Position numbers and translations under genes: made by a program
Notes under the pieces: generated by a model
Told to the model about the DNA's origin: nothing
Database searches by the model: none
What the model saw: only the letters and a program-made list of their open reading frames with translations
In this document: positions 6,283-64,000 of the stretch, piece by piece
How positions within the stretch are numbered: position 1 is the stretch's first letter
Layout of the letters: every line of letters begins with the position of its first letter
Origin: Rhynchocyon petersi
Taxonomy: Eukaryota
Assembly (NCBI GenBank): GCA_043290085.1
Contig: CM091795.1
Span: 422,025,137 to 422,089,136, forward strand
Reading direction: 5' to 3'
Length of the DNA: 64,000 nucleotides

Positions 6283-6333
6283 CTGATTTAGCATGACATC
6301 ATAGACATCATTACCTTCACAATATACATGGGC
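6283..6333 (-). CDS. PARP2: PARP2 coding exon 4. Encodes AHVYCEGNDVYDVMLNQ (51 nt, phase 0).
   Basis: Exact match to human AHVYCEGNDVYDVMLNQ. Acceptor is cttttttcctccatag. Donor is GTAAGG. Confidence 0.9.
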
Positions 6334-7065: not shown

Positions 7066-7136
7066 CTTGCCCACCTTGACTGTGCACTCCGGGTCTACAG
7101 GAGCTTTGCCTTTTAACAGTAAGGTCTTCACAGATT
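7066..7136 (-). CDS. PARP2: PARP2 coding exon 3. Encodes (E)SVKTLLLKGKAPVDPECTVKVGK.
   Basis: Matches human ESVKALLLKGKAPVDPECTAKVGK. Acceptor is ttgtttcttcag|AATCTG. Donor is GTAAGA. The 39 nt upstream of the acceptor contain stop codons, so a long-isoform extension is not possible. Confidence 0.88.
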
Positions 7137-7618
7137 CTGAAGAAACAAAGATACGTATTACAGCTACTTATATACAAATCACATGTAACACTGGTTAGAA
7201 GAAAAAAACCTGAAACACCCTAATTGCCACTGAGTTGATTTCAATTTATAGTGACCCCATGTGTGTGAGCAGAACTGGTCTCCACAGGGTTTTCAATGCT
7301 GACTTTTTTCAGTAGCAGATCACTAGGTCTTCCTTCTGAGGAGTGTCTGGGTGGACTCCAACCACCCCATGAGCCATCTGCATCACTCACCATCTGTATT
7401 CCTGATTAGATGGAAACCTAATCACTATTAACTATGCCCTCCCTTTCCAAGCAATCCTTATCTTCTGCTAAGTAGCAGTCCACAGCAAAGAACTGAAAAT
7501 TAAATTGAACAAAGCAATGATATCCTCAAGGAAAAAAAATGCAGTTGAAAGAACAACAGTCTCTCCTTCCCCAGAGACACTTCTGTCCATGACTCCCCAG
7601 CCTACGTGTGAGGCTGAC

Positions 7619-7783
7619 CTTGCTTGTCTTCTGTTTTGTCATAATTATTAGCCTTTCCTCCAGCTGCAAGTTCTTTTTTCACCTCCTGCTTCTGGCATCT
7701 TCGAGTTTTCTTGGAGGGAGGGCAGTCTTTCGTAGCTGTGTCTCCATTAATAATTCTCTTAGTTGTACTAGAGTCAACAGAAG
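7619..7783 (-). CDS. PARP2: PARP2 coding exon 2. Encodes (A)SVDSSTTKRIINGDTATKDCPPSKKTRRCQKQEVKKELAAGGKANNYDKTEDKQ.
   Basis: Matches human ...NGNTAPEDSSPAKKTRRCQRQESKKMPVAGGKANKDRTEDKQ. Acceptor is ccttag|CTTCTG. Donor is caag|GTCAGC. The phase links to exon 1 and exon 3. Confidence 0.88.
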
Positions 7784-8550
7784 CTAAGGACAAGAATGGG
7801 CAAAGACACAAAGAAATGAGTACATGGAATATGATTCTACTTTTAAAAGTAACTCAGTAAGTTATCAAAGAAATAGTAATTTAAAAAAAACAAAAAAACG
7901 ATCACATCCTTGCTCTGGATATCACAGTCTGAGTCAACTCTTCCCTGAGAAATGAAATGAATTAAGGAGCACCAGGGTTCTTAGGAGTTGCATGATTAAA
8001 AAGCGGAAACAACTTTCTCCTTTGCAGGCAGGACCGAACCCACTGGTACACGGATACATATAGCTCAGGATTTATTTTTCACCATTGCCTGCTAATCTGT
8101 TCCGCATACTTGTGCCTGAATGACAGCCCGACTAGTTGAGGCAGAACGATGCAACAGGAAAACAGCCCTGGATTCCTGCCTGGCTTAGAGCCCGGGACTA
8201 CTCTGATCCCCTTGCTCTTCATTTGTCCCAGCTACAAAATCCCGAGAATGAAAACAATACCTCATTTTTCCAGTCAACCTATCAACAATGAACATAGTAT
8301 AGAGAGTGCTATAGATCGTCAATTCCGAGTCACATGTTAACGTCTCTCATTAGCATGCATCTTACAACAGTGAATCATACAGTTGGAAGCATCTCTTCTT
8401 TCTTCATGACACATAAAACGGTGATCTTAACAACGGTTTTTAAGCAGACGGCAGTGGGTGCTTAATGTCTGGCACACGAGTGTTGGCTGCTACAAGCCCC
8501 CTTCCCAGCGCCGCCCCTCCGGCACCGCGGCGCCGCACCGAGCTCCGCAC

Positions 8551-8590
8551 CTTTGCAGCGGCCGCTACTCGCCCTCCTCCGCGCCGCCAT
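8551..8590 (-). CDS. PARP2: PARP2 exon 1, coding part. The ATG is the reverse complement of 8588-8590. It encodes MAARRRASSGRCK. The 5'UTR extends an unknown distance towards ~8650.
   Basis: The reverse complement reads ATGGCGGCGCGGAGGAGGGCGAGTAGCGGCCGCTGCAAAG|GTGCGG. Human PARP2 starts MAARRRRSTGGGRA. It sits in a GC-rich CpG island divergent from RPPH1. Confidence 0.85.
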
Positions 8591-8830
8591 CGAGCCGGAC
8601 TACTGACGTCACAACTTGTGCTCTGAAATCGCGGGTCCAGAGAGAACCAGGGCGGGAACTGGAAGCGCGAGCGCGACTCCGCGAGAAGACGGCGAGGCGG
8701 GATCCGCAGGGACATCGATGGCGAGACAAATGTATTTGCATGTCGCTGTGTATTGTGGGAAGTCACTCTAACCATGAAATGTCTTCACATCTGGACTTTT
8801 TATAAGCGCTGACCGAGGGAGAGCTGGCTT
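8591..8830. promoter_or_regulatory. Divergent promoter shared by PARP2 (pol II, minus) and RPPH1 (pol III type 3, plus). Elements read: CRE TGACGTCA at 8604-8611, octamer ATTTGCAT at 8734-8741, PSE-like tcactctaaccatgaaatg at 8763-8781, and TATA ttTATAAg at 8799-8806 (about -30).
   Basis: Strong similarity to the human H1 promoter, which reads ATTTGCATGTCGCTATGTG...TCACCATAAACGTGAAATGTCTT...TTATAAG. The spacing from the RPPH1 +1 site fits a type-3 pol III promoter. Confidence 0.85.
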
Positions 8831-9170
8831 ATAGGGCGGTGGGAAGCTCATCGGTGGGGCCACAAGCTGAGTGCGCTCGTCACTCTACACTATGTCCCTT
8901 GGGAAGGTCTGAGACAAGGGCCAATGGCGGCCCTAACAGGGCCCTCCCTGAGCTTCGGGGAGGTGAGTTCCCAGAGAATGGGTCTTCGTGCGAAGGCAGA
9001 AATAGGCAGGAGAAGCCGCGGACTCCGCCCTCGGGAGGGGCCCGGCGGATGCCTCCTTCGCCGGAGCTTGGAACAGACTCACGGCCAGCGCAATGAGTTC
9101 AATGGCTGAGGTGAGGTACCCCGTCGGGGGGCTTCATAACCCAATTCAGACTACTCTCCCCCGTCCTCTT
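8831..9170 (+). ncRNA. RPPH1: RNase P RNA component H1 (RPPH1).
   Basis: Starts atagggcggtgggaagctcatcggtggggccacaagctgagtgcg. It is homologous to human H1 RNA end to end, including ggcccggcggatgcctcc, gagcttggaacagactcacggccagcg and ggtgaggtaccccg. It ends in a T-run at 9168-9172. Confidence 0.95.
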
Positions 9171-9172
9171 TT
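9168..9172 (+). terminator. Pol III T-run terminator of RPPH1.
   Basis: The sequence ctcTTTTc lies immediately after the region homologous to the H1 3' end. Confidence 0.6.
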
Positions 9173-10214
9173 CTTCTCCTTTCCCTCCATCTTTAAAAAC
9201 AGAGGAAGAATACAATGTAAAATTCTAGCGTATAGCGACGACTTCACGAAATGTCATTATACCTTCTTTTAATTGTAGAATTAATTTATTCATAACCATC
9301 TTCAACAAGATGGACTGACACAGGAGAGTGAAGCTGGCACGGGATAGGGGAACGTTTTGATCTGTTGTTGTTCATTGGGTCCGTCGAGTCTTAGTAGCCT
9401 TGGCACTTTACAACAACATGACCACCTTAAATGTTTCTGAATTATACTGTAGTCCTTGGAGTTTTAAGGCTGAGACCTTTCAAAACAGACTGCCAGGCCT
9501 CTCTTGGAAGTGCTATTGAGTGAGGTCAAACCACTAACCATTTAGCTAAGTAATTGAGGGTTCCACTGTGTCACCTGAACACTACATTTTAAAATTGTTG
9601 TTATGTGCCGTCGAGTTGAGGATGACTCATAGTGAACCTATGGATTTTAAATACTTAATATTTAAAAATGAAATAAAATCTAGCAGCATATTAAAATAAT
9701 TCACCCGAGACTTGGTCCCTTAGTCATCCTAAAATGAAAATGGAAATGCATATTGAAAGAGTCCACCCTAGGCTGTGGCATTTAGTCACCCTTCAAGCCT
9801 GTTAATGAAATCACCATCAAGGGGTTAACTTTCAGCCAAACACATCTCAGTTCCACATCTGTGTGGAACAATAGCACCTGGAAGGTATATAATCCTTGGA
9901 AAAATCAATGTTATGAGATCAAAAGGTCATGCAGGTGGGCTGGGGGAAGAAAGGGGAGGGCAGCATTTCTCCAGGAACAAAACACAGAAAGTAGGAAAGG
10001 ATAGGAAGAATGACCGGACTGAAATGGGAAACACAGGATAGCAATGGGATGAGTGCTGTTGCATTGTGAGTATTGTAGTCAGTCAAGAAACAAAATACAT
10101 ATTAATTGTTGAATGGAAAACTAAGTTGCTTTTTGAACCTTCACCCATATCACAATTTAAAAGTTTTTAAAAAGTCATGCAATAATAAACAATTAGATTT
10201 TCCCAAATATGGAA

Positions 10215-11560: not shown

Positions 11561-14365
11561 TATTTTATTAAATTTAAGAACATTTATTCAGAATAGAGAA
11601 AAACATGGTAAAGAAATATAAGTGTAAATTTATTTATTTATTATCCATACACCTCCTTACCTGGTAATCTGCTTTCATAAAGATTACAAGTAATTCTACT
11701 CTACATATGTATAATTCTTGTTAATTCATTTCTGACTCGTACAACAGAATGAAACAAAGCTCTCTTCTGTAACATTCTCACAATCAATAATGTGTTTGAC
11801 CTGGAGTTGGAGCCACTATGTCAATATATCTTCTGAAGGGTCTTCCTCTTTTTCACTGACCCTTTACTTTACCAACTGTGATGTCTTTCTCAAGGCACGG
11901 GAACTGGTCCCTACTTACAACATGTCAAATATGTGAGACACACTCTCACCATTCTTGCTCTTAAGGGACATTATGGATATACTTCGTCCAAGACAGATTT
12001 GTTAATTCTTCTAGCAGCCCATGGTATATTCAGTATTCTTTGCCAATACCACTATTCAAATGCGTGAATTTTTACCTAGTTCTGTTTATTAATTGGTCAG
12101 CCAACTTCTACTCAATATTGTATTAGAACTCCTAGCCATAGCAATAAGACAAGCAAATTGCATAGCTTTTATTTCCTTTTCTGGTTTTAATCTCTCACTC
12201 ACTTATTGCCATCAAGTCAATTCTGACTCATAGTGACCCTCTATCAGGTTTAATACTGTAAATCATAATAAGGGGAGAATGCCCATTTTTCTCCCCTAAA
12301 ATTACTGGTGGATTCCAATGGTTACTCTCAATGCTATGAAACACTATGGACTTCTCCACCACAGCTCCCTAGAGACTCTGATACACCCAAAGAATTCTAA
12401 GGACATAAAGGATTTATAAAATGTAAACCATAAAACTTGTTAAAAGAGGTGAAAAATACTTCAGCAAATGGAAAGATGTTACATGCTCATGAATCAGATT
12501 GGTTAAGATAGCAATACCAATAGCAATGCCATCTATAGATTCAACACAATCTCCATCAAATTTCTAACCACTGTTTTGTTTGTTTGGTAAATTCTCAACT
12601 TTATATGGAATGACAAAACTCAAGGAAATTCATTGCTGTCTAGTTGGGACTGACTCACAGCTGACCCTCTAGTGGGTTTCCATAGCTGTAAATTGCAAGG
12701 GAAGAGATTGCCCTTCTTCTGCAGAGCAATTGGTGAATTTCAACTTCAGACCTATGAGTTGGCAGCAACCTCCATCCACTAGGCCACAAGAGCTTCCTAA
12801 TAGAATGACAAGGAGCACCAAATAGCTAAAATATGTTGAAAGAGAACAAAATGAAATGACTCACATATCCTGATTTTCAAATGTACTATCATGCTTGGAA
12901 AGGTCTCCACTTGGAAAGTAGTGAGCTCATTTCCAGGACTGACAGGTCACATGGTTGGAAAGTGTCAGTGAAGGAGAGGGTAGACCTTCAACTAGATGGA
13001 TGAACACAGTGACTGCAACAATAGGCTAGAGTATATGAGGGATGGGGAGGATGGCACAGGATAGGGCAAGGTTTAGATCTGTTCTTCATTGGATCACTAT
13101 AAGTTGCAGTAGGCTCAATGACACCTGCATGCTAGAATATGGAGCTCTGGTGGCATGACCTGGTACAATGGTACTCCAAAGGCCATGTCGCTCTGGTTGT
13201 TCATGCCCATCTGTGGGGGGAAAAATGGCATTCTCTTCTAGTGTTATTTACATCCCCAGAAAACCTACTGGAGGGTCAGCTATGAGTTGCTTCTTAAATA
13301 GTGGCAATGAGTTTAATAGGCTAGAATATAGTTTAATCAAACAACCTAATATAGGTATAATAATAGACATAGACAAGGGGACTAGAACTGAGCCCAGAAA
13401 TAAGCCCACATGTATATAGTCGACTGATTTTTTTACAAGGTTACTAAACCCATTTGATGGGGAAAGAAGGGTCTCTTCAAGAAATGGTGCTGGCAAAATA
13501 AGATATCTACATGCAGAAAGATAAAACAGGATCCGTGCCTCACATTTCATGGTGGTGGTGGTGTACCGTTGAGTCATCAACGACTCATAGTGACCCTCTC
13601 AAGGTTTTCCAGAGGCAGTATCGCACGTGGGAGTGGAAGCCACTCTTTCTCCCTCAGAGCAGCTGGCGGATTTGAACCTCGTGCCTTTGGGTTGGCAGCA
13701 CAGCTCCTTCACCACTAGGCCACGCCAGCTGCTCTTCATTTCATGGAAATAGAAATTCAAAATGGATTAAGGACCTAGAAGTACAAGTAGGGGCAGTGCA
13801 GTCAAGCCTCACTTTCCCCAATGATGATGGGTACTGTTGAGTCATGACTCACTTATAGCTGACCCTCTAGTGGGTTTCTGGAGGCAGTATATCAAGTGGG
13901 AGTTGATGCCACTCTTTCTCCCAAGGAGCAGCTGGTAGATTCGAATCATGTGCAGCGCAGCTCCTTACCACTAGGACACAAATCCATTATCTAATATAAC
14001 AAAAGAACAAACAAGCTAAATAACAAGCTAAATAAATAGGGCCTGATAAAACTTTCAGTCATCAAAAGAACTTTACCAAAAAAGTTGGAAAGACAAATTA
14101 CCAATCTGGAGAATGTTTTTAGAAACCATGTTTCTTACTTTGGGCATGTTCTAAAGTCCTTGGAGAAAAGGCCAGATTTTTGGCAAAGCAGATGGTCAAT
14201 TGAAGAGAGTTAGACAAGACCCTAAATGCAATGGAATTACACAGTGGACTTGAACATGTCCAAAACATGTCAAAACAATGCACTTGAGTATGTCAGAGAT
14301 TGGAGCGTGTGAGGATGTTATAGGACAGGGCAAGGTTTCAAGATGTTGTTCGGGGTTCCTATAAA

Positions 14366-25330: not shown

Positions 25331-26449
25331 CAGATTGTTAGTTTCAGGAGAAAATTGAGGCTCAGAGAGTTTAAGTACTTTATACAAGACTAAGTAGCTA
25401 AAGGTTTCCTGAATATGATCACAGTTCCCAGGTAAGGGCCACAGAATATGCTTGCACAGTACCTAGAGACAGAGATTTTTATTGGCCTTTCAGGTGAAGA
25501 ACTCCTGCCAAGAGGGGAGTGATTTGTTGAAGAGGCCACTCTGCAGGAGCCCAGAATCTTCTTGGCATCCACTCTACCTGGAACACATCTCCTAGTTATA
25601 TTCGGACAAGTCTAAACATGTGTTTTAGATGTGCCATTAGGATCATGCCATAAAACCAGTGTTTAGAATAACTATACTAATGATCAAAAAAAGAAGATGT
25701 ATGAAGAATGCATTTCTTATTGCTAATAATGAAAGGAGGCCTTTTAATTGGCTAAATTTTATTCCAAAACCTTAATCACCTGGCTTTAATCCACTAAACC
25801 GGTGAGGTGCAGTACTGCCCTAAGGGCACGATCAGACTTGAATGGATCTAGACTGTTTATAATACATCCTGTTACCTTGCATAAATTACCAAGGTCGAGG
25901 TCACAAAGGACACGACTTTATCGTAAAGTGCTGAAAATTATCTGAGAAAGAATGCAGTGGGCCTCTTTAAACAAGAACATACCCAGATAAGTTGAATTCC
26001 TCTGTGCTTGCTTGTGCTAAATACATGAACCCCGAAAGAAATGAGATTTCAGAAATTCAGTCTGAGAACTGTGCAAGAAGCATCATTAATCCACGAAGAG
26101 ACAGTTAGATTAAGGAGAGGATTGCGTCTTTGAAATACGTTTTAAGGTAATCCTGTGTGGCAGTTCTGCTCCGTCCCATAGGGTCGCTAAGAATAGGAAT
26201 CTACTCCATGGCAACAGGGTTGATTTTTTTTTTTTTTTGGTTTAAGGTAAAGGAGAGAACCCGCCTTTAACTCACTAGCCAATCAGGTGGTGAGGCTACC
26301 TCCCAAGGCCACTTCCTGTCTCTCTACTCTCTCTCTTCTTTCGGCTTTGGTGGGATGGTGAGTGTGCGTTTTACTTCTCTGGCTGTTTTGACTTTTTCTT
26401 CCAGTGAAGCCAGTCAGCAGTGCAGCAGGGCTTTATTTTAAGCCAGCAT

Positions 26450-26900
26450 AAGAGTGTGTGAGTGAGCGAGCGACTATTTCAGCACTGCGCAGGTTGGGGA
26501 GGGACGTGAAACGCTGCGCCCGGGCGCCTGCCTCGTTTGCACGTGGGCGGCTGCAGAGCTGGGTCGGCGTTGCTTCACCTAGACCTGGTGACCTAGGCAC
26601 AATAGCCTGTCGTTCAAGTACAGAGTGCCCGTGCGCCTGGAACATGCCTGGATTCATTCTGCGCGGAGGTACTGGCAGTTTTGAATTCCATCTCAGAGGA
26701 TGGCTCCTGCGATGAGTTGAGCCCTGCACCGGTTAAGTCTGGTAACTGTCAGCCGAGCCCGGTTGTCGATAGCTTAGTGGGACCGCAGTAGACATTCTCA
26801 CCGCCCTGCTCTTTCTTGGAGCAGTTCGCCTGTCTTGGTGAGACTGGGCGGTAAACAACTGAAGTCGGATGATTTAGTGAGTCTTCGGACAACCTCCTAA
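26450..26900 (+). promoter_or_regulatory. CpG island, a candidate distal promoter or 5' non-coding exon of CCNB1IP1. A CCAAT box lies at 26279 and strong GT donors lie at 26358 (gggatg|gtgagtg) and ~26838 (cttg|gtgagact).
   Basis: This is a dense CpG cluster. Examples are gagcgagcgact, cgctgcgcccgggcgcctgcctcg and gggtcggcg. The surrounding sequence is otherwise CpG-depleted repeat. It is upstream of, and in the same sense as, the intronic snoRNA and the CCNB1IP1 CDS. Confidence 0.45.
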
Positions 26901-35299: not shown

Positions 35300-36545
35300 C
35301 TGTGTTATTGTTGTTGTTGTGTGCCGTCGAGTCGAAGACGACTCATAGCGACCCCATGAACAGCAGACCTGAATTGCGCCCTATCCTGAGCCATCCTCAC
35401 CATCTTCGACACACGCACGCCCATCACTGCAGCAACCGTATCCATCCATCTAGTCGAGGGTCTACCCCTTCCTCTCCTACCTTCCACCTTTTCAAACATG
35501 ATGTCCCTCTCCAGGGACCGGTCTCTCCTGGCAACATGTCCGAAATACGTGAGGCGGAGCTTCACCACCCTCGCCTCCAGGGAGCACTCTGGCTGGATCC
35601 TCTCCAGAACATACTTATTCGTTTTCTTGGCCATCCATGGGATATTGAGAACTCTTCTCCAACACCACAGCTCAAAGGCATCAATTCTTCATCTGTCGTC
35701 CTTAGTCATTGTCCAACTCTCGGATGCATGGGTAACGATTGAGAAGACCATAGTTTGGATCAGACGCACCTTTGTCTTCAAACTGATATCCTTACTCCTC
35801 AGGACCTTGGCGAGGTCTCTAACTGCAGCCTTTGCCAATGTGATACGTCTCCTGACCTCCTGGCTGCTAGTGCCAAGGGTGTTGACTGTGGATCCAAGCA
35901 GTATGAAATCCTTGACATTTTCAATCCTCTCCCCATCCACTATGACATCCCCTATTGGCCCAGTAGCAAGGATCTTGGTTTTCCTGAGATTCAGCTTCAA
36001 TCCATACTGTAGGCTGCACTCCTTAATTTTATGCAGCAGAGCCTTCAAGTCATCTTCACTCTCAGCAAGCAAGGTTGTGTCATCTGCGTATCGCAAGTTG
36101 TTGATGCATCTTCCTCCAATCCTAATTCCACGCTCCTCCTCGTAGAGTCCCGCCTCCCGGATAATCTGCTCTGCATACAGGTTGAACAGGTATGGAGACA
36201 GGATGCAACCCTGGCGCACACCTTTCCTGACTTTGAACCATGCAGTGTTCCCATGCTCTGTTCTTACCACAGCTTCTTGATCTAGATACAGATTTCGCAT
36301 GAGCATGATCAAGTGTTCTGGAATTCCCATTTTCCTCAATGTGAGCCACAGTCTGTTGTGGTCCACACAGTCAAATGCCTTTGCATAGTCAATGAAGCAC
36401 AGGTACACATTCTTCTGATACTCCTTACTCTGAGCCAGGATCCATCTAACATCTGCGATGATGTCCCTGGTGCCCCGGCCCCTTCTAAAACCAGCCTGAC
36501 ACTCTGGCAATTCCCTGTCAATGTACTGTGCTGTGTTATTAGTAC
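35300..36545 (-). mobile_element. Young RTE/BovB-class retrotransposon copy (3' 1.25 kb, 5'-truncated). It carries a 273-aa uninterrupted reverse-transcriptase ORF (35689-36510) plus a downstream 109-aa C-terminal ORF.
   Basis: The ORF reads ...FIDYAKAFDCVDHNRLWLTLRKMGIPEHLIMLMRNLYLDQEAVVRTEHGNTAWFKVRKGVRQGCILSPYLFNLYAEQIIREAGLYEEERGIRIGGRCINNLRYADDTTLLAESEDDLKALLHKIKECSLQYGLKLNLRKTKILATGP. RT domains 3-7, including YADD, are intact. The canonical tail reads tgttgttgtgtgccgtcgagtcgaagacgactcatagcgacccc. Confidence 0.85.
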
Positions 36546-36647
36546 CTGAAATTTGGTAGCTGAGAAGTTTTTAATTGCAATCTTAGGTGGCTTTCCTGAT
36601 GTAAGTATTAGGAACTGGTGGTGGTTTGCCCTTCACCAATCATTTAC

Positions 36648-36723
36648 AGTTTGCCATGATGAAATGCATGTTAAGTCCGTGTTTCAGCTGATCACCTGAT
36701 TAAACACATGCTCTGAGCAGACT
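36648..36723 (+). ncRNA. SNORD126: C/D-box snoRNA, the positional equivalent of SNORD126 in a CCNB1IP1 intron. Boxes read: C box ATGATGA at 36656-36662, D' CTGA at ~36688, C'-like TGATTAA, D box CTGA at 36713-36716. The terminal stem is agtttgc/gcagact.
   Basis: Sequence is agtttgccATGATGAaatgcatgttaagtccgtgtttcagCTGAtcaccTGATTAAacacatgctCTGAgcagact. It is 76 nt with canonical box order and spacing. A 7-bp terminal stem flanks the C and D boxes. It is intronic and in the same sense as the host gene. Confidence 0.7.
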
Positions 36724-37388
36724 AAAGCTAGGGGCAAACGCCTGAAATGGAATTCTGTTTCTTGGAATCTTTATTGGATTCCAGTCCATGATCCCCAGAT
36801 AATTTTCAAGTCTCTGTAAATATTAGTTTGTTACTATAATTAGTGCTTATTTCATTTTATCAGTCATTTGTGATATCTAAAGAAAATAGAACTAGGGCCA
36901 AGACTCTGCACTAGTCAGCTTGATTATTATCACAACACTGTAGTATAGAGGTTTATGCATTTTGAAAGGTATGGAAGGATAAGTTCTTTTTCTGCCTAAA
37001 CATTTACAGATACATGTGTTTACGTGAGGAATCATCTGAAAAGATGTTCATACTGTTTTTGTTTCTGGGTTTGAGTTCTATGGATGATCTTGCTATTTTT
37101 GCTAACCTATGTTTTCTAAATCCTTACATGTATGATTGAAAATAATTTTTTTGAGGAGCTAGACAAGACAATCTTGTTCGCTTTACTTGTTCTATAGTTT
37201 TAGCAAGAAATACGGGTATATGTGAGGGTGATTTAAAGAATTTGGTAATCACCCTCATGAGTGAATTATAAAAATAATTGAAGGTAGTAGCATTAGCACT
37301 TGAAATAATTTTTTTGGTGGTCTTTTGCAGAAATAAAATTTCAAGAGACCGAACTTAGATGTGAATCTTTTTCCTTTTCCAGTCTTAC

Positions 37389-37427
37389 ACTTGTGTCGCT
37401 GAAAGTCCTGGATATACAGGTAATGGC
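37389..37427 (+). other. Candidate small internal exon (39 nt), possibly a CCNB1IP1 5'UTR exon.
   Basis: The context is ccttttccag|TCTTACACTTGTGTCGCTGAAAGTCCTGGATATACAG|gtaatg. It has a good acceptor and donor in unique, non-repeat sequence. Confidence 0.25.
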
Positions 37428-37782
37428 TTTTCTTTTATGGTAAGACTTAGGTTGAAAATGAAGATTTTTATATAGGGCAAAAATGACTTTGAATCCTTAA
37501 AAGTTTTGTGATTTCATGTCTGCTTGCCTAGGGTCTTCATGTAAAGATGTAGAGAAGTAACACAGCATAGTTTTCAGTGGGTTCTGCAGATAGACTATGT
37601 TCGTTCAAATACATGCAATTTACAAAATTGGGTACCTTGGGCAATTTTCTTCCAATTTTAGAAGATTATGAAAAAACTATCTGGCTCACAGAATGATTAC
37701 TTTGTATATTAGACAGTAAATGCATTTATAAGAACTTGAGGCCATGTGCATATGTATGCATAAGACCTTAAGAATCAGCTTC

Positions 37783-38275
37783 TTTTGCTGTTGCGCTGAG
37801 TTGTGCGGAGTTGGAGGTCTGGGTGAATTTACGACTGTGCTCCCCACTGCCATGACTGAGGAAGGCATTGGTGCAGGAGGTGTAATGGATGTTATTACTG
37901 CTTTACAAGAAGAGGTGCTAAAGACCACCGTCATCTATGGTGGCCTAGCATGTGGAATCTGTGAAGCTGCCAGAACCTTAGACAAGCATGAAGCCCATCT
38001 GCGTGTGCTTGCAACAACAGCAACGAGCCTGTGCATGTGAAGCTAGAAGCCCATTGTGCAGAGCACCAAATCAACCTGATACAAGTTGATGACAACAGGA
38101 AACTAGAGGAGTGGCTTTTGCAAAATTGACAAAGAAGAAAAGCCCTGGGATGTGGTTGGCTGCAGTTGTGTGGTGGTTAGTAACTATGCAGGAATCTGAG
38201 GCCAAGGATGTCATTGGAGAGTATTTAAAATGCAAAAAAGTGAAATAAAAACTTTGGAATATTGGGAAAAAATCA
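37783..38275 (+). pseudogene. RPS12: Processed pseudogene of ribosomal protein S12. It is intronless and carries multiple stops and frameshifts.
   Basis: Translates as [50 protein letters not shown]...[13 protein letters not shown]...FKMQK. Human RPS12 reads [53 protein letters not shown]...[38 protein letters not shown]-like 5' end reads cttcttttgc. The 3' end is A-rich. Confidence 0.85.
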
Positions 38276-39456
38276 TGTAGGGATCTTGTTTAAACTGTAG
38301 ATTCTGATTCATTATATCTGATATAGATATGAGCTAGTTCAAAGTCCTACTTTCCCATTTAACATTTAGGGGACCTTAGTTCTTAAATCATCTCTTTAAA
38401 AATTTAGATATAATAATTATTACCTTCATAAGTTTATTGATGTTTTCCATTTTACTGAGTATTTATTAAAATAATGTGGTTAGAAGTACATTTTGATGGC
38501 TGTTCCTCTTGCTGCTTGGAGCCTTAGGCAGTGAGATTTTAGTCCATCATAGATCAAACCTGGCTTGTCTTCACTCAGGGCACCATGGGATGGGTTGGCC
38601 GTCCGTTAGTGTCTTCTGATTTTTGCGGAGTCTAACAATTATAAAGTAGATAAACAGATTAAGAGCCTGTACCTTTATTTGTTTTCAAAGGAGAAAAAGT
38701 TAATTAATATATTTAATATAAGTCTTTGGTGATGATACTTGAATTGCTTTGACCTAGAAGTATGATGAGGGAGCTCTGGTTACCTAGTGGTAAGGAGCTG
38801 TGCTGCCAACAAAAAGGCACGCGGTTCAAATCCGCCAGCTGCTCCATGGGAAAAAGAGTGGCATTGACTTCCATGTGATTAACTACTTTTGACAACCCGC
38901 TGGTGGGTCAGCTATGAGTCGGTCATGACTTGACATTACTTAACAACAAAAACAACACAAGTATATTGTCAAAAACTGATTGTGACAGTTAATGAAATAA
39001 TTGTGCTCTGAAGCCATTCGTGTTTAAATGGTATTACTCTGTTTTCTATCCCCCACACCCCTTGATCGCACAAATTTTCTGGGTCATTTTAAAAATAGTT
39101 TTCTCTTTGCAGTATGAAGGTAGAAGATATAACATATTAAAGATGGAAGTTGGATTTTCTCACCAGAAGCAGTCCTATGGAATCAATCGACTTGCAGACG
39201 TGTGAGAGGTGGCAAAGGAAGGACAGAACTGAAATCACTGTGGCTCAGCTTTCAAAATAGACAGTTCTTCCCCCCCCACCCCCCGTATAAGGTGAATAAT
39301 AACAACGTGGAGGTACACATTTCTTACAGCAGCGAAAGAGCAGTGTTTTCCCACAGATAAATCTCGGAATGCAGGAAGGGATAGGGAAGACTGGAAGCCG
39401 TGAATGTGGAGAGAAGTGGGAATTGCAGTGCATTGTGGGGATTGCAGTCAGTGTGA

Positions 39457-40430
<974 letters not shown>

Positions 40431-50300: not shown

Positions 50301-50449
50301 ACCTGTCCAATAAAGGTTAGAAGTTTAGAAACACACTGGCTATTCCTGAAGTCCTTTAGTGAAATGGGATTAGACTTTATCCTGAAAAAAACCTCAGAAA
50401 ACGTGTACTGGGAATTGTAAAATTTCCCCAAGATTCAGAAGGCTTTCAT

Positions 50450-50960
50450 TTCAATTGTCAGAGCCACGATGGCGAGGGTGTTTATGCGTCTTCCAGTCTA
50501 CGGTAGGAAGCGGCACTCGGACGGTATCTGAGGGAATAGGCGCGGCCACACACGGCGGACCGCTTTGCGGATGCACCTGCCACCCGGCAAGAGAGGTGCC
50601 ACACTGCGCGCTTCCGACTCTGGCGCCCCCTTCCGGTGGGTCCCGAGATCCCTAGCGGCCCGAGCGCGGGGGCGGCCGTGCGCATGCGCTGGCGTGGGCT
50701 TCTGTGCGCGAGGCGGGAAGTGTCATTTTCCTTGTGAAGTTGGCAGAGGCGACGGTGTTTTCCCGCGCTTTTTCTTGGCACCGTAGGTTAAATATGTTTA
50801 CTTGTATTATTCCTATCCTTATCATTCTTGTTTATTCACTTGAGCGTGGTAAGAAAGCTAAGCATTCGCAGTGGAATGTCTGTGGGCCGGTAAGCGTGCC
50901 CCTGGGTAATTTGGACGAGCCCACCAGATCGACTCCTTTCTTCCCATTGTGGAGAATTCG
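50450..50960 (+). promoter_or_regulatory. CpG island 2.1 kb upstream of the CCNB1IP1 start codon. It is the likely proximal promoter or a 5' non-coding exon. It carries an ETS-like gcGGAAGTg motif at ~50713 and candidate donors at 50848 (gtg|gtaaga) and 50888 (ccg|gtaagc).
   Basis: It has very high CpG density. Examples are cgcggccacacacggcggaccgc and gcggcccgagcgcgggggcggccgtgcgcatgcgc. The many short ORFs on both strands here have no coding character. Confidence 0.5.
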
Positions 50961-53040
50961 GAATTAGCTGCACAGCTTCTTTGTCCGGAGACAGAACTCG
51001 ATTTAAAAACTGTTCCTAGCTCTTCTGCTTCCTCTATCCTCATTGAAGGTAAACTAAGCCTCCTAACTCGGCCTCCCAGTGCAACGTGCCTTGGGAGAAG
51101 GGCTGAGAAGACACTTGGATATAGGTTCTGTCTTTGTCAGCGCCCGTGTCTGAGGGAGCATTCCTGATAAAATATGCCAGTTGGTAAATGTGAGCGTTTT
51201 CTTCGTGTGTAAATTGGCGTGTCACAATTGTAAACGCTCCATGACTTGTCGAGCCGCTGGCGTGGCCTCGTGGTGAGGAGCCCACGGCTCCACTCGGCCT
51301 AATCTAGTCTCACCCGAGCCAGTCGCTCTGCGGGAGAAAAAGAGTGGCGTCAACTCCCCTGTGTGATACGCCGCCTCCGGAAACCCGCGGGAGGGTCAGC
51401 TATGAGTCGGTCACGACTCCACGGTGCCCCTATCAGCTCAGCGCATGACTTGTCAGGTGACGCTGCGTGCTGTAGGATTCACGATGATGATGGGGCCGTC
51501 GCAGCTGGCCCTCCCGAGGGTTTCCAGAGGCAGCATGTCGCACGGGAGTTGACGCCGCTCTTTCTCCTGTGGAGCAGCTGGCAGATTCGAACCCTGTATC
51601 TTTGTGGTGGCAGGGCAGCTTCTTACCCCGAGGCCACGAGCGACTATAAACAACAGGTTTGAGCCTTGCCTTGCCCTACCGCGCTCCATCCTTACGATCT
51701 CTGATGTACTCAAGCCCATTATTACAGTAACGGTGTCAGTCCATTTCATTGAGGATCATCCTCTCTTTCTCTGACCCTTCTTCACCTTTCTCTGCATGTT
51801 ATTTTGCAAGGACTGGGACCCTCCTGAAAACATACCCCCAAAATGTGAGACCAAGCCTCACCATCCTTTCCTTTAAGAAGCAAACTGGTTTCACTTCCTC
51901 CAAGACATTTTTTTGTTCTTTTGGCAGTCTATCATACATTTAATACTCTGCCAGCATCACAATTCAGAGGCATCAATTCTCCTGTTGTCCTTATTCATTG
52001 TCAAACTTTCAGATACATGGAAAACAATTCAAAATACCACGGTTTGGAGCAGGCACACTTTAGTCTTTATACTGCCATCCTTGGTCTTCAGCACTTTGGA
52101 GATGTCCATGAAAGGAGATTTTCCCAATGCACATATTATATTGTGGCCCTGTTTGAGTTAGTACAATTCTAACATGAGTGGCTACTACAGTAAAAAGTAA
52201 ATTAACCAGTAGAATTTATTTCTTTTCGCAAATACATTAAGTAGGAGCATAGCAGTGGATAGCATTCACATTAATAGATGAATAATGTTGACTGAAAAAA
52301 ATCCCACTTTTTTGCAGATTTCAGGGTACATAAGGACCAATTACTTGAATGAAGTAGGCTAGTTTCTATCTACTTCTAGCAGGGCTGCTGCTCTTTTCAA
52401 AGAAGACTACACAAGTGAAAAATCTGAGAAATCATAGCAAAAAATGGAGAATCTGAACATTCAACTTAAAATGCTTTGCACTAAAGAATGGCAGAAATCA
52501 GTGCCTAGACTTACTGTATCTGCTAAGTGTGAAATGTGGGACTGAAAAGTTGTAACAAATTATGAATGGATAATAAATTTGGATTTTGTTTAGGCTCCAG
52601 GGCTGTTCATAGGGTTGCTATGAGTTGTCCATGACTTGATGGCTCATAACAACAGGACAGGGGCAAAAATTAACTGATTTAAATTTTACTTGTTAGAACC
52701 ATTAAAAATTGTTCCTAAACTTTTTCCCCTCAATGTGCATATTTTTTTATCTTAGTAGATAAGAAACCACCTGTCTTTATCTTTTTCTCTAGAAAATTAT
52801 TTTTGAGCTTTTGTTGTGGTTTGCACAGAGAAAGAATGGGTTTAATAATACTATACATCAATATTGATAATAAAAATATGAAAATAATAAAATGTGATAA
52901 TTTCACCATGCAGATTTAATTTTTTAGAAGTTCATGGATTTGGTTTGAAACTTTCATTTTCACTGTAGTTTGACATACTTGCTCTTTTTATTTATTTCTC
53001 TAGGATTCTTTTCAGCATCTGGAGACTTAAGTCTTTCATT

Positions 53041-53337
53041 ATGTCTTTGTGTGAAGATATGCTGCTGTGTAATTATCGAAAGTGTCGAATTAAACTTTCT
53101 GGTTATGCATGGGTTACTGCCTGCTCTCATATCTTCTGTGATCAGCACGGCAGTGGTGAGTTTAGTCGCTCTCCAGCTATCTGCCCTGCATGTAACAGTA
53201 CCCTTTCTGGAAAGCTAGATATTGTCCGCACAGAACTCAGCCCATCAGAGGAATACAAGGCCATGGTGTTGGCAGGACTGCGACCAGAGATTGTGTTAGA
53301 TATCAGTTCTCGAGCACTGGCCTTCTGGACATATCAG
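53041..53337 (+). CDS. CCNB1IP1: CCNB1IP1 first coding exon. It carries the RING domain and encodes aa 1-99. A probable acceptor lies at ~53003 (ttctctag|G).
   Basis: Translates as MSLCEDMLLCNYRKCRIKLSGYAWVTACSHIFCDQHGSGEFSRSPAICPACNSTLSGKLDIVRTELSPSEEYKAMVLAGLRPEIVLDISSRALAFWTYQ. This is identical to human HEI10 residues 1-99. Donor is cag|GTTAGT at 53338. Confidence 0.95.
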
Positions 53338-56101
53338 GTTAGTACTGAAGTTAGTTTCTCTGGATAGTCTGACTTGAAGCATATGTGGAAGCTTCCAATA
53401 TTTTTCTTCATTGTTACATGAATGTATGAAAAGTTCTTTGTAATAGTTGTATTTTTTTTTTATGAAACTAATGTTGAAAATCCAAAGGCAAAAAATTTTA
53501 AAACTACCCATAATTTTACCCCTTAGAGATGACTGTGATAATATTTTTGTCTGTATGCTATTAGGCCTTTTCTGTGCATAAATATTTGTAGCTACACAAA
53601 AACCAAAATAATACCATACTTATTATTCTTATGAGTAGTTAAAGTTTATTATTAATTATTATGAATACAGAGAGCTCTGGCAGCCTAGTCTGTAGGGAGT
53701 TTCCTTGCTAACCCAAAGGTGATGCCTTTCTGGCAGTTCGAAACCACCTTCTACTCCATGGGAAAAAGAGGGGCAACCTCATCCTGTGTGATTCACAGCC
53801 TCAGAAACCCAATGGAGGTTCAACTATGAGTGAGTGCTGACTCATTGGCATTAAGTTATAAGTCAATATAAATATTGTTTTAAAATGTAAATATTTTGAA
53901 ATAATAATTTAAATGGTTACATTGTATTTTAGTTGTTTAGTGTTGCTATAACAGACATGTCACAAGTGGATGATTTCAACATAGGTCTATTTTCTTGTAT
54001 TAGAGGGGGCTAGATACCAAAATTCAGGGTGCCAACTATAGAAGGCTTTTTCTTTCTTGGTTCTGAAGGAGGCCCTTGTTTTCTTCTTCATTGTCTGTAA
54101 ATGTAGCATTCCTTGGAGATCTCCATAAAGTTCTGACTTTCTCCTGTGTCGTGGCACTTTCCAGCACATGGACCTTTGTCCAAAGGATGTGCTGTGCTCC
54201 TGGTTTTCTTTCTTGGTAGTGCTAGAGGGAGTAGTAATACTTTCTGTTGGCTTCCTTTCTTTTTAGCAACCACGAGACAAAAGGTGTTAAGGATATTCCC
54301 AGGACAGCCCCTTTCATCTTTCTCCATCACATTACAGCCAAGAAAACCCTATAAGACAGTTTTACTTTCAAATACTTAGGAACATTGTGAGTTAGAGTTG
54401 AGCCAGTATCAGTGGGCTTGGCTTGATTTATTTCTGTGTATTGAACTTAGTGTTTTAAAAGGAAATTGAGTAGCTTAAAGCAGCACATATTTATTATCCT
54501 TTAGTTTTGTGTGCTTAGTTGGGTCCTCTGTTCAGATCAGGATCCCACAAGGCTGTAGTTAACATGTTGATTAGACTGGAGTCCCATATGAAATTGTACT
54601 GGGAAGTTTCTCTACTTCTAAACTTAGGTGGTGGCAGGCAGCTGTGTTACTTATTTACTGTTGCTAGAACAGAAATACTACAAATGGATGGATCTAACAA
54701 ACAGAAATATCTTTTCTCTTGTTTTAAAGGAGTCTGTGGGCTAGTGGTGAAAGAGCTGCGCTGCAAGCCCAAAGGCACGTGGTTCAAACCTGCCAGCTGC
54801 TCCGCAGGAGAAAGAGTGGTTTCTACTTCTGTGTGAGATACCACCTCCGGAAACCCTCGGGAGGGTCACTATGAGTCGTTCACGACTCGACGGTACACCA
54901 CCACCACCAGACATATAAATTCAGGACAACAACTCTAGAGATCCACTCTTGCCACTTTGGTGTAAAGTCCTTGACTCTTTCCCACATCTGTGGGCTTGGC
55001 TTCCTTGGAGCTCTCCATGTATCTTGCCATCAATATTTTCCTTGGTGTAGGAAGTCCATAGCTCAGGGACCTTGGTCTGATGGATGCATTCTGATCCCAG
55101 CTGTTCTTCCTTGGTGGTACTGAGAAACCCCTCTCTGCTTATTTGTTTAATCTGTTCTATATCTCAAAAAAGGTTGACTGAAGATACAATTTAATCCTTA
55201 GATTAGATCCTGTCTTTTTTTTTTTCATAATCTTGTCACCTTCTTACTGTAACTGCCTCTAATCTTGCATTAACATCATGTTGTTTTATGCCATCGAGTC
55301 AAGAACAACTCATAGAGACCCTATGAACAGCAGACCTGAAACACACCCTATCCTGTGCGATTCTCATCATCTCTTACACACTTGCACCCATCACTGCAGT
55401 TACTGTGTCTATCCATCTAGTCCAGGGTCTGCCTCTCTTTTTCTCTGTGCCTCCACCTTTACAAACACGATGTTCCTTTCCAGGGACTGGCTTCTCCTCA
55501 TTAACATCATAGAGGCTAAGATTTACAACATATCACAATGGAAGGATCATCAAACTATAAGGAGAATCATGACCTAGCACATACTATGGGGAGACACAGT
55601 TCTGTCTATAGCATCTTGTAAAACAAATTTTAGTTTAATACAATCATCAAGTAACATTCCATCACCGTTGCTATATTCTAGTCACAGGTCCTGTCTACAT
55701 TCAAGGGAAGAGGATGGGCAATGGTGTGAGTTCCAGGAGGCAGGGATAATTGAGTCTGTTTTCCATGCTATGATTACTTGAAAAATGAAATGTAATTCTT
55801 AAAAGCTTTGTCACTTGTTAAGGTAAGAAAAGTGATAGCTATTTTTTTGTGTGTGGTATAATAGTAATGGTTTAAGACTAATCCTCCAGGAAATTATCTG
55901 TGCTTTGCTGACATACTATTTTCTATATTAATCAATTAATCATTTTATTGTGTACCACAATGCTTCTTAACCTAGTTCTAAATGTTAAAGTAATAATTTC
56001 CTAATAATGTAAGCATCTTTCCTTTTATTTTCTGATTTTATAAAGTCTACTGTATGTTACTTTGTAATGATTACTTTAAAAATCTTTTCTATCGTGGATA
56101 G

Positions 56102-56435
56102 GTACACCAGGAACGTCTTTACCAAGAATACAATTTCAGCAAGGCAGAGAGTCATCTGAAACAGATGGAGAAAATCTATACTCAGCAAATACAGAGCAAA
56201 GATGTAGAATTGACTTCTATGAAAGGGGAGGTCACCTCCATGAAGAAAGTGCTAGAAGAATATAAGAAAAAGTTCAGTGACATCTCAGAGAAACTTATGG
56301 AACGAAATCGCCAGTATCAAAAACTCCAGGGCCTCTATGATAGCCTTAGGCTACGAAATATCACTATTGCTAACCAAGAAGGTAGCCTTGAACCATCCAT
56401 GGTTGCACAGTCTGGTGTTTTTAACTTCCCATTAG
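56102..56435 (+). CDS. CCNB1IP1: CCNB1IP1 second coding exon. It encodes VHQERLYQEYNFSKAESHLKQMEKIYTQQIQSKDVELTSMKGEVTSMKKVLEEYKKKFSDISEKLMERNRQYQKLQGLYDSLRLRNITIANQEGSLEPSMVAQSGVFNFPL(G).
   Basis: Acceptor is ttttctatcgtggatag|GTACACC. Donor is ttag|GTGAGA at 56436. It aligns over its full length with the human HEI10 coiled-coil region. Confidence 0.95.
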
Positions 56436-57419
56436 GTGAGAAAGGACATTCCTGTATCTATTCTTTAAATCAGTGATTTTCATATTGTGCTCTGCAGAGT
56501 TCCAAGCTCTCAGAGAACCTCCAAGTACTCGGGATGGTAAGAGGGTCTATGTTTCTCATACTTCTCTTAACCTGTTCATGCTTTTTAAAATTTTTGTTTA
56601 TATTTAAGCTAAATCTAAAGTTTGTGAAGTATAACTTAAAATGAAAAGCTGTTTAATTTCAGTAACAATAATAATATTGGTGTTTATAGGCCAGCATTTT
56701 TATGAATATTTAAAATATATGCATCTAATTTTAATAACTTTGTGTATTATTATTATTATTAGACTTAGTTTTAAAGATAGGAAAATGGGTCACAGAAACG
56801 TTAAGTGATTTGGTTACGTTAACAGGGCCCACCCTATTTGCTATCTTTTTAGAAGGTCATGTTTGGTTTTTTTGCACAGTGATACTGACTCAGAGTTCTA
56901 AAGTTATTGTTGCTTGTTTGGATGGTTTTGTTCATAATTCATTTATCCATTCATCAAATATTTATCAAACATGTTTCAAGCATTTCAGGTTGCTGGGCTC
57001 AGTATTACTCAGAGAATCTAGGATGATATTGGATCCTTTATGCCTGCTAGTTTACTTGGAGGAGCTCTGGTGGCCTAGTGGTAAGGAGCTGCAATCCAAA
57101 GGCAAACAGTTTGAATCCCTCTTCCAGTGTGATTTACAGCTTCTGAAAATCCTCTAGAGTGTCAGCTATGAGTTGGTTCCGACTCCATGGCACTTAACAA
57201 CAACAGTGTATTTGGCAGACAGAGTGAATCTTACACCATCCCTGATGTCTCTCTTTTATGCTACTCTTGGTGAATCCAATGTGCTTTTGGCATACAAGAG
57301 AAAAGATAAAAACGGAGAAAAAGAAATTTGATGGAATAGGGACCAATAAAATATATGAAGTGATGAGATACAGTGATGAGATAAGGAATATTAGATGTAA
57401 GAATCAAAACAAAACTCAA

Positions 57420-57640
57420 ATTTTTGCTTAACTTTCAGTTTATACTAGTATATATTAGATTTTGCATACTGTATATTCTATATATTAGAATGTATATATT
57501 ATTACATATTAATATGTATATTACTAATCAGTGCATATATCAATATAATGTATAATTAGTGTATTATTAACATAATGCATATATTATCCATTATAATTTA
57601 ATCTTAGTGTTATTGTCAGTGGACATTGTAGATGGTCTCT
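57420..57640. repeat. AT-rich imperfect tandem or low-complexity repeat (tatatta/gtatatta units) in a CCNB1IP1 intron.
   Basis: Sequence reads atatattagattttgcatactgtatattctatatattagaatgtatatattattacatattaatatgtatattactaatcagtgcatatatcaatataatgtataattagtgtattattaacataatgcatatattatcc. Confidence 0.7.
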
Positions 57641-58105
57641 TTCTTGTCAAAACGATGACATAAATTCTAGGTCTATTAAAAAGACATATCTCTGGTCAGT
57701 GACTTTGGTGATAAAGGTCATAGCTATCACTGTAGACTGCGTCACTAAAGGTGCAGTGCATATTGTGGTTGGGGTGAAAATGGGGGAGGAATAATTGTAG
57801 TCTTTTACTTTATACAACATTCGACCTAACAAAGCAATGATTTTGAGGATGACACAGGACTGGGCAGTATTTCCCTCTCCTGCAGTGCAGCTTCTTACCA
57901 CTAGGCCACCAGCGCTCTGGATATAGGGTTACTGAGGAGGCCCTGACTTGAGAAGAGACAGTCTGTTTCACCCATGACTTTCACAGGAATTGAGTTATGT
58001 AAAAAAAAAAAGAATTCATTGAATGACTTTGGTTTTTGTTTTTTTCTTCTGAAGATCTATAAGGAAATAGATACTTAAGTTCTTCCTTACTATTTTTTAC
58101 CCCAG

Positions 58106-58308
58106 GGAACAGCTCCAAGTTTCGTTTGGATGGTACACCAGTTCAAAATCGGGGCGGTGGAGGTGGAGATTTTCAATTCAGACCATTTTTTGTGGGTTCT
58201 CCCACACCACCTGAACCAAGCAACACTTTTTTTAATTTTGCCTCTCCAAGTCGTGAATTAGAGAAACAGCAAGTCTCTAGTAGAGCATTCAAAGTAAAGA
58301 GAGTTTAG
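58106..58308 (+). CDS. CCNB1IP1: CCNB1IP1 last coding exon. It encodes (G)NSSKFRLDGTPVQNRGGGGDFQFRPFFVGSPTPPEPSNTFFNFASPSRELEKQQVSSRAFKVKRV*. The 3'UTR runs to about 58990, with AATAAA at 58970-58975.
   Basis: Acceptor is ttttttaccccag|GGAACAG. Stop TAG is at 58306-58308. The summed CDS is 277 aa, the same length as human CCNB1IP1. It is homologous to human ...FQFRPFFAGSPTAPEPSNSFFSFVSPSRELEQQQVSSRAFKVKRI. Confidence 0.93.
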
Positions 58309-61300: not shown

Positions 61301-64000
61301 ACGATACCCATCATCAGTGCAGCTTGGATGACTTCTTTCAATGCTATTTGCTCTTGGGAGAAAGACTGGGAAATGTAGTGGGTCAATGAAAGAGGAAGAT
61401 CATCAGTGAGATGGATTGATGTGACTACAGAGTTAGTTTTGAGCATGATGGAGATAGGATAGCACAGGACAGGGCAAGGTCCTGATATATTATTGTTCAC
61501 ATGGTGAGAATTAACCACAGTTGTTCACATGGTGAGTATTAGCTGCAGTTGACTGAATATCACCTACCAATACAACAAATCATAGAGAGTTGATTAAAAA
61601 GAAAAAGCCAAGAAAGAAAGTTGAAGAGTAACTTATGTCTCACTAGATGCAAGGTTTGAAAGGATACTGATTGAAAGGGAATAACTATATTCTCAATGTG
61701 TTTTTTGTATTACTTCAATGTGTTATATAACTTAACTTTATCTTTCTGGACTTTATTTTCTATGTATTTTGGTTGTGTTCCATTGTGTTGTAAATAACTT
61801 ATAGTTGATTCTCCAGGAGATTTTCAGTAAATCACATGGGAGGAAGATTGCCCATCTTTCCCCTGCTCAGCAACTGGTGAATTTGAATGAAGTGCTTTTG
61901 GGTTGGCAGCACAACTTCTTAGTCTCTATCTATAGCTATATAAAATGAGAAGTTGATTTATTTTACCCTTAGATCCCTTTCTGCTTAAATTCTTTGATTG
62001 AAAATTGCAATGAAAAACAAAAGATAAAAACCCCATAAACCAAAAAAACCCAGAAGAAAATTGCAATGAAGTTACAATGAATGCCAAATTCATTGCTTTT
62101 TTAGTAATAAAATAATACCAAAATTGCTTGAAGATATTTTATTTTGGCATTGTAGTAAAGCAAGTGAATATCTCTGCTTTGTATACTTGAACAAGTTTCT
62201 AATGAAACTTTATTCAAGTTGTGGTGGTTATGTGCTATGGAGTTAGAACCAACCCATAGCTGACCTCAAGTGGGTTTTCAGAGGTTGTGAATTGCCTGGT
62301 AGGAGATAGTCTCTTTCTCTCATGAAGCTGCTGGTGGATTCAAACTGCCTGCTTTTGGATCGGCAGCACAACTCTACTAGGCCACTGAGAGGTCCTTTTA
62401 TGAGAGGTATAGAGTATAAAACCTACTCAATTTTTATTTTTACTATACCTAAATACTTTTTGGTACAGTAACTGTATTCCTTTAATCTTCTTTTGATTCT
62501 GTTCATTTCCTTTTGCCATCATTCAAGATTTTACCCATGGCATCCTTCAATGTTGCAACTTGAGCCTTGAATTTGTGTTTCATTTCTTTCAGCTTGAAAC
62601 CTGCTGAGTAAGTCCTCCCCCTTTTTGTTTTATAACTCCAGCTCTTTGCACATTTTATTACAATACTTTGTCTTATTGAGTTGCTCATTGGGATCTTCTG
62701 TTCCTCATCTCTTTTACTTCAGTATTTCTTCTTTCTTTTGCTCTTGATGATCTAATGCAATTTCCAGCGTGTCTTCAGATATCCATTTTGGTCTTCCCCC
62801 CCCCTTTCTTTGTAATGACCTTTTGCTTTCTTTATGGATGTTGTCTTTGATGTCATCCCACAACTGATCTGGTCTTCCATAATCAGCGTTCAATGCCTCA
62901 AACCTGTTCTTGAGATTGGGTTTTTTTCCCCAACAAAGTTATAAAACACAGTTACTATATTGATTTCTTACAACCATGTACTGCCACTCAGCATTGTGTC
63001 CACTTACACATCATTAAAAACAGAAGTATGTTTCCTTGGCATTTTTAAATGATGCATTAAACAAAAAGTTAGAACTTAAAATGCACCCTGATTAGTTCTA
63101 TAAACCTGTAAATGGATTTTTTTCTTTTTTTTTTAAAGAGCATTAACTAGTAGTTTGGTTTCTTTCTTCATAAAATGGAAATTACGTATTTCTCCTGATA
63201 GTCTTGAGGTTATCATTCTGTTAAGAGTAGAGCAAAGTATGGCACACAGTTTCTTCTGGAAAGGTATGTTCCTTATACACCTTATCAAACGAGCTGCACT
63301 TGACCATGAGACACACCATTCATGCATAATAGAGAGCATCTTTCATACTTACCGGGCAGAGGAAATATCATGATCAAGAAGATGATTTTTCCAGGGCGAG
63401 GCTCACCCGTTGGTGTACTGCTCCCTGCAATTTCCCCAAATGCGGGAAACTCGACTGCATAATTTGTGGTAATGGGGGCTGTGTGCATGCTATCCTCTTA
63501 GAAAAAAGAAAAAAAAAAAAGCATCTTTCAAATCCAAGGCAACCCCTCAGGTGATCATATAATATCGGTTTGCATTATCATTTATGGCATTATAGATTAA
63601 CTACATTTAATGTACTTTTATACATTTTAACCCTGACGATAAGAAAATTGTTTCTTGAAAAAAATAATTCCAGGTAACTATTTGGATTGTATCTGGAGAA
63701 AGTGGACTTCCAAGAACTTGTGGAGATTGTTTTTTAATTCAGGTGGGATAGACTGAAGGTCATGTTTTAGTTCTTGTGCATGATTTGTTTTCATTTTCTT
63801 CAGCTTCAGTTTGACTTCACACATGAGTAGTTCATAGTCTGTTCCACATTCAGTGCCTGCTTGGATTTGACTGCTGATATTGACCTTGATACAGAGTCAC
63901 TATACAGAAAGTGACTGACACAGAACCATTTTAGGAAGTAGCATATGATCAAGAGCCAGTGGTTAAGAAGGAAGATGTTCAAGCTTCACTGAAGGCATTG

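Follow-up and report, generated by a model that had tools for sequence, protein, structure and literature searches.

SNORD126, a box C/D snoRNA gene with a conserved 28S rRNA guide, at the CCNB1IP1 locus of Rhynchocyon petersi

The window, by which we mean the entire 64,000-nt stretch of DNA analysed, carries on one strand and in this order the RNase P RNA gene RPPH1, the box C/D snoRNA SNORD126, the H/ACA snoRNA SNORA79 and the coding region of CCNB1IP1. The RPPH1-like gene for nuclear RNase P RNA (8835-9165, plus strand; Rfam, 244.5 bits) is full length and lies beside a CpG island at 8301-9200, and PARP2-like exons, found by tblastn, occupy the minus strand from 572 to 7763, giving a divergent PARP2/RPPH1 arrangement. 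The succession of PARP2, RPPH1 and CCNB1IP1 corresponds to that of human 14q11.2. The CCNB1IP1 coding region (53041-58308, plus strand) consists of three exons at 53041-53337, 56102-56435 and 58106-58308, which were found by tblastn with a CCNB1IP1 protein query and which a splice model joins into an intact 277-aa ORF. Its first coding exon contains the RING domain (Pfam zf-RING_5) and retrieves database CCNB1IP1 proteins with identities of up to 100%, under the names "cyclin B1 interacting protein 1" and "E3 ubiquitin-protein ligase CCNB1IP1". SNORD126 shares the strand of CCNB1IP1 and precedes its ATG exon by 16.3 kb, and SNORA79 (38494-38640, plus strand; Rfam RF00600, 118.2 bits, full length) follows SNORD126 at a distance of 1.8 kb. 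An earlier note on this DNA, made from the letters alone, had placed the snoRNA in unique sequence between repeats and in the same sense as CCNB1IP1; both hold, as a LINE fragment ends at about 36.5 kb, an RPS4 retrocopy occupies 39.46-40.19 kb and the coding exons lie downstream on the plus strand.

When the whole window was searched against Rfam 15 at curated thresholds, the SNORD126 model RF01168 matched positions 36648-36723 on the plus strand with 101.3 bits (gathering threshold 55, E 8.9e-22), and the alignment spans the full length of the model (1-77 of 77). These coordinates are exactly those of the 76-nt sequence quoted in the earlier note, which we located at 36648-36723 on the plus strand, and the family returned by the C/D models is SNORD126 itself, as had been proposed there. 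The interval represents the genomic precursor form with its full terminal stem, in which AGUUUGC (36648-36654) pairs with GCAGACU (36717-36723) over six Watson-Crick pairs and one U.G, a stem that is also modelled and matched by the Rfam covariance model. Within it, the C box AUGAUGA (36656-36662) matches RUGAUGA exactly and is as perfect as had been described, and the D box CUGA (36713-36716) abuts the 3' stem arm instead of lying 4 nt away from it. On the other side a single C (36655) intervenes between 5' arm and C box, so that the earlier description of a 7-bp stem immediately outside both boxes is right for the seven pairs and for the D side but not for the C side. The C box is followed by a conserved spacer with the hexamer UGCAUG (36665-36670, read directly from the sequence), which matches the RBFOX-binding consensus and which, at its frequency in the window, is expected by chance about 0.03 times per 76 nt. 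Next come the 13-nt D' antisense element GUCCGUGUUUCAG (36675-36687), the D' box CUGA (36688-36691), a D'-C' loop of 5 nt, the C' box UGAUUA (36697-36702), which has one mismatch to UGAUGA, and the C'-D spacer AACACAUGCU (36703-36712), a potential short D guide of 10 nt; the D', C' and D boxes were located by box search, and the internal pair agrees with what had been noticed before. The element thus combines the features of the box C/D class: C and D boxes, a terminal stem, D'/C' boxes and a D' antisense element of at least 10 nt. According to the Rfam alignment, all boxes and the D' guide are the same as in the family consensus. Departures are found in the D'-C' loop, where one base is deleted (UCAC-CUGA vs UcACCCUGA), and in the stem at model positions 1/77 and 4/74, which differ from the consensus on one or both sides but keep their pairing (A-U and U.G where the consensus has C-G).

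Orthology was examined in one species, the tamarin Saguinus oedipus (GCA_031835075.1), where SNORD126 (4688-4764 of the corresponding locus, 105.5 bits) and SNORA79 (8355-8501) precede the ATG exon and share its strand. The order SNORD126, SNORA79, CCNB1IP1 is common to tamarin and window, and the kinship with SNORD126 of other mammals that the earlier note had supposed is borne out by this copy in the same synteny. The two snoRNA sequences are identical in 75 of 77 aligned columns (97.4%), and both differences, one deletion and one substitution, fall in the D'-C' loop. Identity is 93% over the 30 nt upstream and 87.5% over the 40 nt downstream and amounts to 41-44% in the further flanks, with tamarin-alignable sequence starting at window position 36533. 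This pattern of conservation indicates that a syntenic gene is under purifying selection, and it speaks strongly against both chance and a retroposed copy. The distance from the snoRNA to the ATG exon is about 10.9 kb in tamarin vs the 16.3 kb of the window, where retroelements inserted in this lineage have lengthened the introns.

For a target of the antisense element, ribosomal DNA was retrieved with an exact 40-nt vertebrate 28S pattern, which returned nine loci; two of them, L003 and L007, were used and were verified by Rfam matches to SSU, 5.8S, LSU_eukarya and the mammalian promoter RNA pRNA. The 13 nt directly abutting D', GUCCGUGUUUCAG, pair with UUGAAACACGGAC, a universally conserved segment of 28S rRNA, over 13 bp (12 Watson-Crick and one G.U; -19.5 kcal/mol). 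The duplex begins at guide position 1, and position 5 (36683) faces an adenosine, the second A of GAAAC. In an unbiased scan of both guides against 18S, 5.8S and the 5' 3.0-3.4 kb of 28S this was the only outstanding match. A duplex of 13 bp with at most one G.U was reached by one of 2000 shuffled guides, and when G.U pairs were allowed without limit a 13-nt run was reached by 62 of 1000. In these same stretches of rRNA the D guide AACACAUGCU attained at best 8 bp, which 713 of 1000 shuffles equalled. Antisense matches next to D and D', which the earlier note had considered worth looking for, are thus present for D' in 28S, and the D side has none in the rRNA tested. The target adenosine bears the number 1302 in L007 and 1174 in L003, compared with 1310/1323 in human, the numbers differing because upstream expansion segments vary in length. 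We take it to be the equivalent of human Am1310/1323 from its sequence context and from the neighbouring SNORD18 site A1313 three bases downstream. SNORD18 (U18), which guides 28S-Am1313, pairs with the same 28S segment GAAACACGG, but it belongs to an unrelated snoRNA family with another host gene and another target nucleotide and is conserved from yeast. In comparison with U18, SNORD126 is restricted in its distribution and has been lost in mouse (PMC8307265).

In the literature, SNORD126 is the guide for 28S Am1323, or Am1310 in the older numbering (PMC9941101). It was first thought to be an orphan, next predicted to target 28S and then shown to methylate 28S conditionally (PMC9226514; PMC9941101; PMC8307265). 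The description "orphan-type" in the earlier note is outdated. The guide complementarity is present in the window. Methylation at 28S-Am1310/1323 is fractional and varies between tissues (PMC9941101). Mouse lacks both Am1310 and SNORD126, and in rat the two are tissue-specific (PMC8307265). Since the methylation is partial and depends on conditions, and since mouse has lost the gene, guiding may be a dispensable activity. Following the established C/D snoRNP pathway, exonucleases would trim the intron to the particle after splicing and debranching, and the terminal stem would juxtapose C and D into a K-turn bound by SNU13/15.5K, NOP56, NOP58 and fibrillarin. For human, the literature offers data on such a stable, protein-bound RNA of about 60-100 nt (PMC4150776). 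The D' guide, paired with 28S UUGAAACACGGAC, would then set the second A of GAAAC at the fifth guide nucleotide, the position of 2'-O-methylation by fibrillarin, and from the literature the methylated adenosine would be 28S-Am1310 (Am1323). An intact SNORD126 with an unchanged 28S guide predicts that this species can methylate the adenosine equivalent to human Am1310/1323. Methylation at this site varies in human, is tissue-specific in rat and is missing from mouse, and the prediction adds a modest observation to the study of ribosome heterogeneity.

SNORD126 might instead act mainly through proteins (hnRNPK, leading to FGFR2 and PI3K-AKT, or RBFOX2) or through pairing of the region around D' with mRNAs and intron-exon junctions, leaving 28S guiding as a dispensable side function. 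In human studies, binding of hnRNPK needs the C' and D boxes and FGFR2/PI3K-AKT signalling is activated (PMC8148486), predicted contacts with mRNAs and junctions are centred on nt 37-53 and knockdown alters about 1050 genes as well as 309 splicing events (PMC9226514), and a short form of SNORD126 that depends on RBFOX2 has been reported (PMC4150776). The fractional methylation of the 28S site (PMC9941101) and the lack of the gene in mouse (PMC8307265) point in the same direction. Moreover, segments outside the guide, namely the spacer with UGCAUG and the C'-D spacer, are conserved as strictly as the guide itself. This could, however, equally reflect mutual pairing of those segments: UGCAUG at 36665-36670 is complementary to ACAUGC of the D-guide region, and the pairing appears in the MFE fold. 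On the other hand, the 13-bp guide with its correct box geometry is perfectly conserved and matches the mapped methylation site exactly, while the non-canonical functions of SNORD126 come from cancer cell lines and are compatible with a guide role. Methylation-independent roles may coexist with guide function, but that they should be the main task of the gene seems unlikely to us.

The retroelements that fill the window (among them the LINE reverse-transcriptase fragment and the RPS4 retrocopy), the many snoRNA retrocopies of mammalian genomes and the loss of SNORD126 in mouse (PMC8307265) would all suit a decayed or retroposed copy, a pseudogene that is neither expressed nor assembled here. 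Such a copy would hardly be expected to share its syntenic place, its alignable flanks and its neighbours with tamarin, to keep four boxes, stem and guide undamaged, and to show 97% identity to tamarin vs about 42% in the neutral flanks; there is also neither a poly(A) tail nor a target-site duplication adjoining the element. We regard this origin as very improbable.

SNORD126 was the only candidate in the window with C/D boxes plus stem when both strands were searched with wobble pairs allowed; a filter restricted to Watson-Crick pairs overlooks it on account of the U.G. At least one candidate with a stem of at least 6 bp occurred in 42 of 300 block shuffles of the window (14%), for which reason we did not use the motif-only statistic as evidence. 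The arrangement of boxes and stem alone is weak evidence, the fold energy is unremarkable against shuffles (z = -1.18), and it is the match to the covariance model that carries the case beyond chance. Such arrangements do turn up in 14% of shuffled windows of 64 kb, and the fold energy is ordinary, but an accidental grouping of short C/D-like motifs in intronic DNA is refuted by the full-length Rfam match at E 8.9e-22, the tamarin ortholog and the guide match to 28S, and its probability is practically nil.

We are highly confident that the element is a SNORD126 gene, a box C/D snoRNA with a D' guide for 28S-Am1310/Am1323 that probably lies in a 5'UTR intron of CCNB1IP1. It shares with human SNORD126 (RF01168, host CCNB1IP1/HEI10) the boxes, the D' guide, the host gene, the strand, the neighbour SNORA79 and the predicted target 28S Am1310/1323, and differs from the human family in the deleted base of the D'-C' loop, the changed outer stem pairs and the longer introns. 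The element is already known: snoRNA, host locus and 28S guide, the last intact here, have all been described. SNORD126 is curated as a family in both Rfam and HGNC and has been written about extensively, and the present copy has little value as a discovery; its value is that of annotation.

The position within the host gene was approached through splice signals and conservation. A polypyrimidine-CAG acceptor about 26 nt before the CCNB1IP1 ATG implies that upstream exons exist, and as SNORD126 lies upstream of the start codon, only a 5'UTR intron could hold it. Two blocks conserved in tamarin are candidates for non-coding host exons on the plus strand: the first, a candidate 5'UTR exon at 37331-37439, lies between SNORD126 and SNORA79 and has the acceptor TTTTGCAG and the donor G/GTAAG, the second, at 39113-39201, lies downstream of SNORA79 and has the acceptor TTTGCAG and the donor T/GTGAGA. 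Splice signals of both are conserved with tamarin, namely the polypyrimidine-CAG acceptor and the G/GTAAG donor of the first and the TTTGCAG acceptor and the donor, T/GT(G/A)AGA, of the second. From these conserved candidate exons we infer that SNORD126 would be intronic in the CCNB1IP1 5'UTR; if real, the exons would also separate SNORD126 and SNORA79 into consecutive introns, the usual vertebrate arrangement of one snoRNA per intron. Human SNORD126 lies within a CCNB1IP1 intron (PMC8148486), in line with the host gene named in the earlier note. Should the candidate exon at 37331 be real, about 600 nt would separate SNORD126 from the nearest 3' splice site downstream. SnoRNAs preferentially sit about 50 nt ahead of the branch point (PMC5519232), from which a spacing of about 600 nt is far removed, and this counts against the intron placement as modelled.

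A weak CpG island at 26301-26800 is the sole promoter candidate upstream of SNORD126. A stronger island at 50401-51700 (GC 0.57-0.64, observed/expected up to 1.13) is located downstream of SNORD126 and 1.3-2.6 kb upstream of the CCNB1IP1 ATG exon; the tamarin locus has no counterpart of it, and it may represent either an alternative promoter specific to the lineage or a repeat rich in GC. Were it the only CCNB1IP1 promoter, the snoRNA would lie outside the gene, an arrangement that we disfavour because the island is not found in tamarin and the ATG exon has an acceptor. A mini-exon just after SNORD126 (AG at 36783-36784, GTAAAT at 36816) was considered as well and rejected, as tamarin has an Alu-like insertion there and no conserved donor.

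Close to the snoRNA, a search for repeats in window and tamarin found a perfect 8-bp inverted repeat, identical in both, with an upstream arm GTTTGCCC at 36624-36631 and a downstream arm GGGCAAAC at 36732-36739 (plus strand), which makes a candidate external stem. The upstream arm GTTTGCCC duplicates GTTTGCC of the SNORD126 5' arm (36649-36655), and GGGCAAAC can pair perfectly with either, so that three mutually exclusive helices result. An external stem is plausible given the roughly 600 nt to the next acceptor, and long external stems permit splicing-independent assembly of C/D snoRNPs (PMC5519232). With the intronic C/D snoRNAs that have such stems, the element shares the large distance to the next 3' splice site and a conserved inverted repeat outside the mature RNA, but unlike theirs (PMC5519232) its repeat has only 8 bp, shows no covariation and is not favoured in the thermodynamic fold. 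The repeat is invariant in the two species compared and hence without covariation, the extended region with its flanks folds no better than shuffles (z -0.15), and the extended MFE fold prefers the snoRNA 5' arm paired with the downstream GGCAAAC. RBFOX2-dependent snoRNAs tend to sit away from splice sites, and human SNORD126 has a long, NOP58-dependent and a short, RBFOX2-dependent form (PMC4150776). The conserved flanking repeat is a plausible external stem or processing signal, which on sequence grounds we would treat as a lead only. That the flanks are a processing element for splicing-independent assembly, in which the choice of helix might set the long or short form and UGCAUG at 36665-36670 might be the RBFOX2 contact, is a speculative extension to which we give low odds. 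As a processing signal the repeat can be tested, and it is the only mildly new angle of this locus.

The surroundings of the snoRNAs are rich in sequence derived from mobile elements. The LINE reverse-transcriptase fragment upstream of SNORD126 occupies 35689-36507 on the minus strand (Pfam RVT_1, E 6e-30), and many similar LINE reverse-transcriptase ORFs are found at 25-50 kb on both strands, with recurring C-terminal peptides such as "MVRMAQDR..FRSAVHRVAMSRLRLDGT"; by eye only, this repeat family looks like the RTE/BovB type, which would suit a genome outside the primates. Between SNORD126 and SNORA79, an ORF at 37744-38040 (plus strand) resembles ribosomal protein S12 by eye ("GVMDV.TALQE.LKT...") and has no Pfam match; it is probably the decayed remnant of part of a retrocopy. 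At 39463-40185 (plus strand), an RPS4-like ORF of 241 aa that lacks introns is open over nearly the whole protein and matches Pfam Ribosomal_S4e, RS4NT, S4 and KOW. This processed retrocopy, too, lies within the CCNB1IP1 locus and comes after the candidate exon 39113-39201. A borderline Rfam tRNA match at 13661-13729 on the minus strand (29.2 bits, threshold 29) has a broken T-arm, and ARAGORN found no tRNA anywhere in the window; the match is probably repeat-derived, a tRNA-derived SINE or a pseudogene. Downstream of CCNB1IP1, a U1 snRNA-like sequence at 63345-63499 (plus strand) covers the full span of its model with 105 bits. In this sequence G replaces U10 in the region that recognises the 5' splice site and the stem-loops contain mismatches and deletions, and it is probably a U1 variant or pseudogene.
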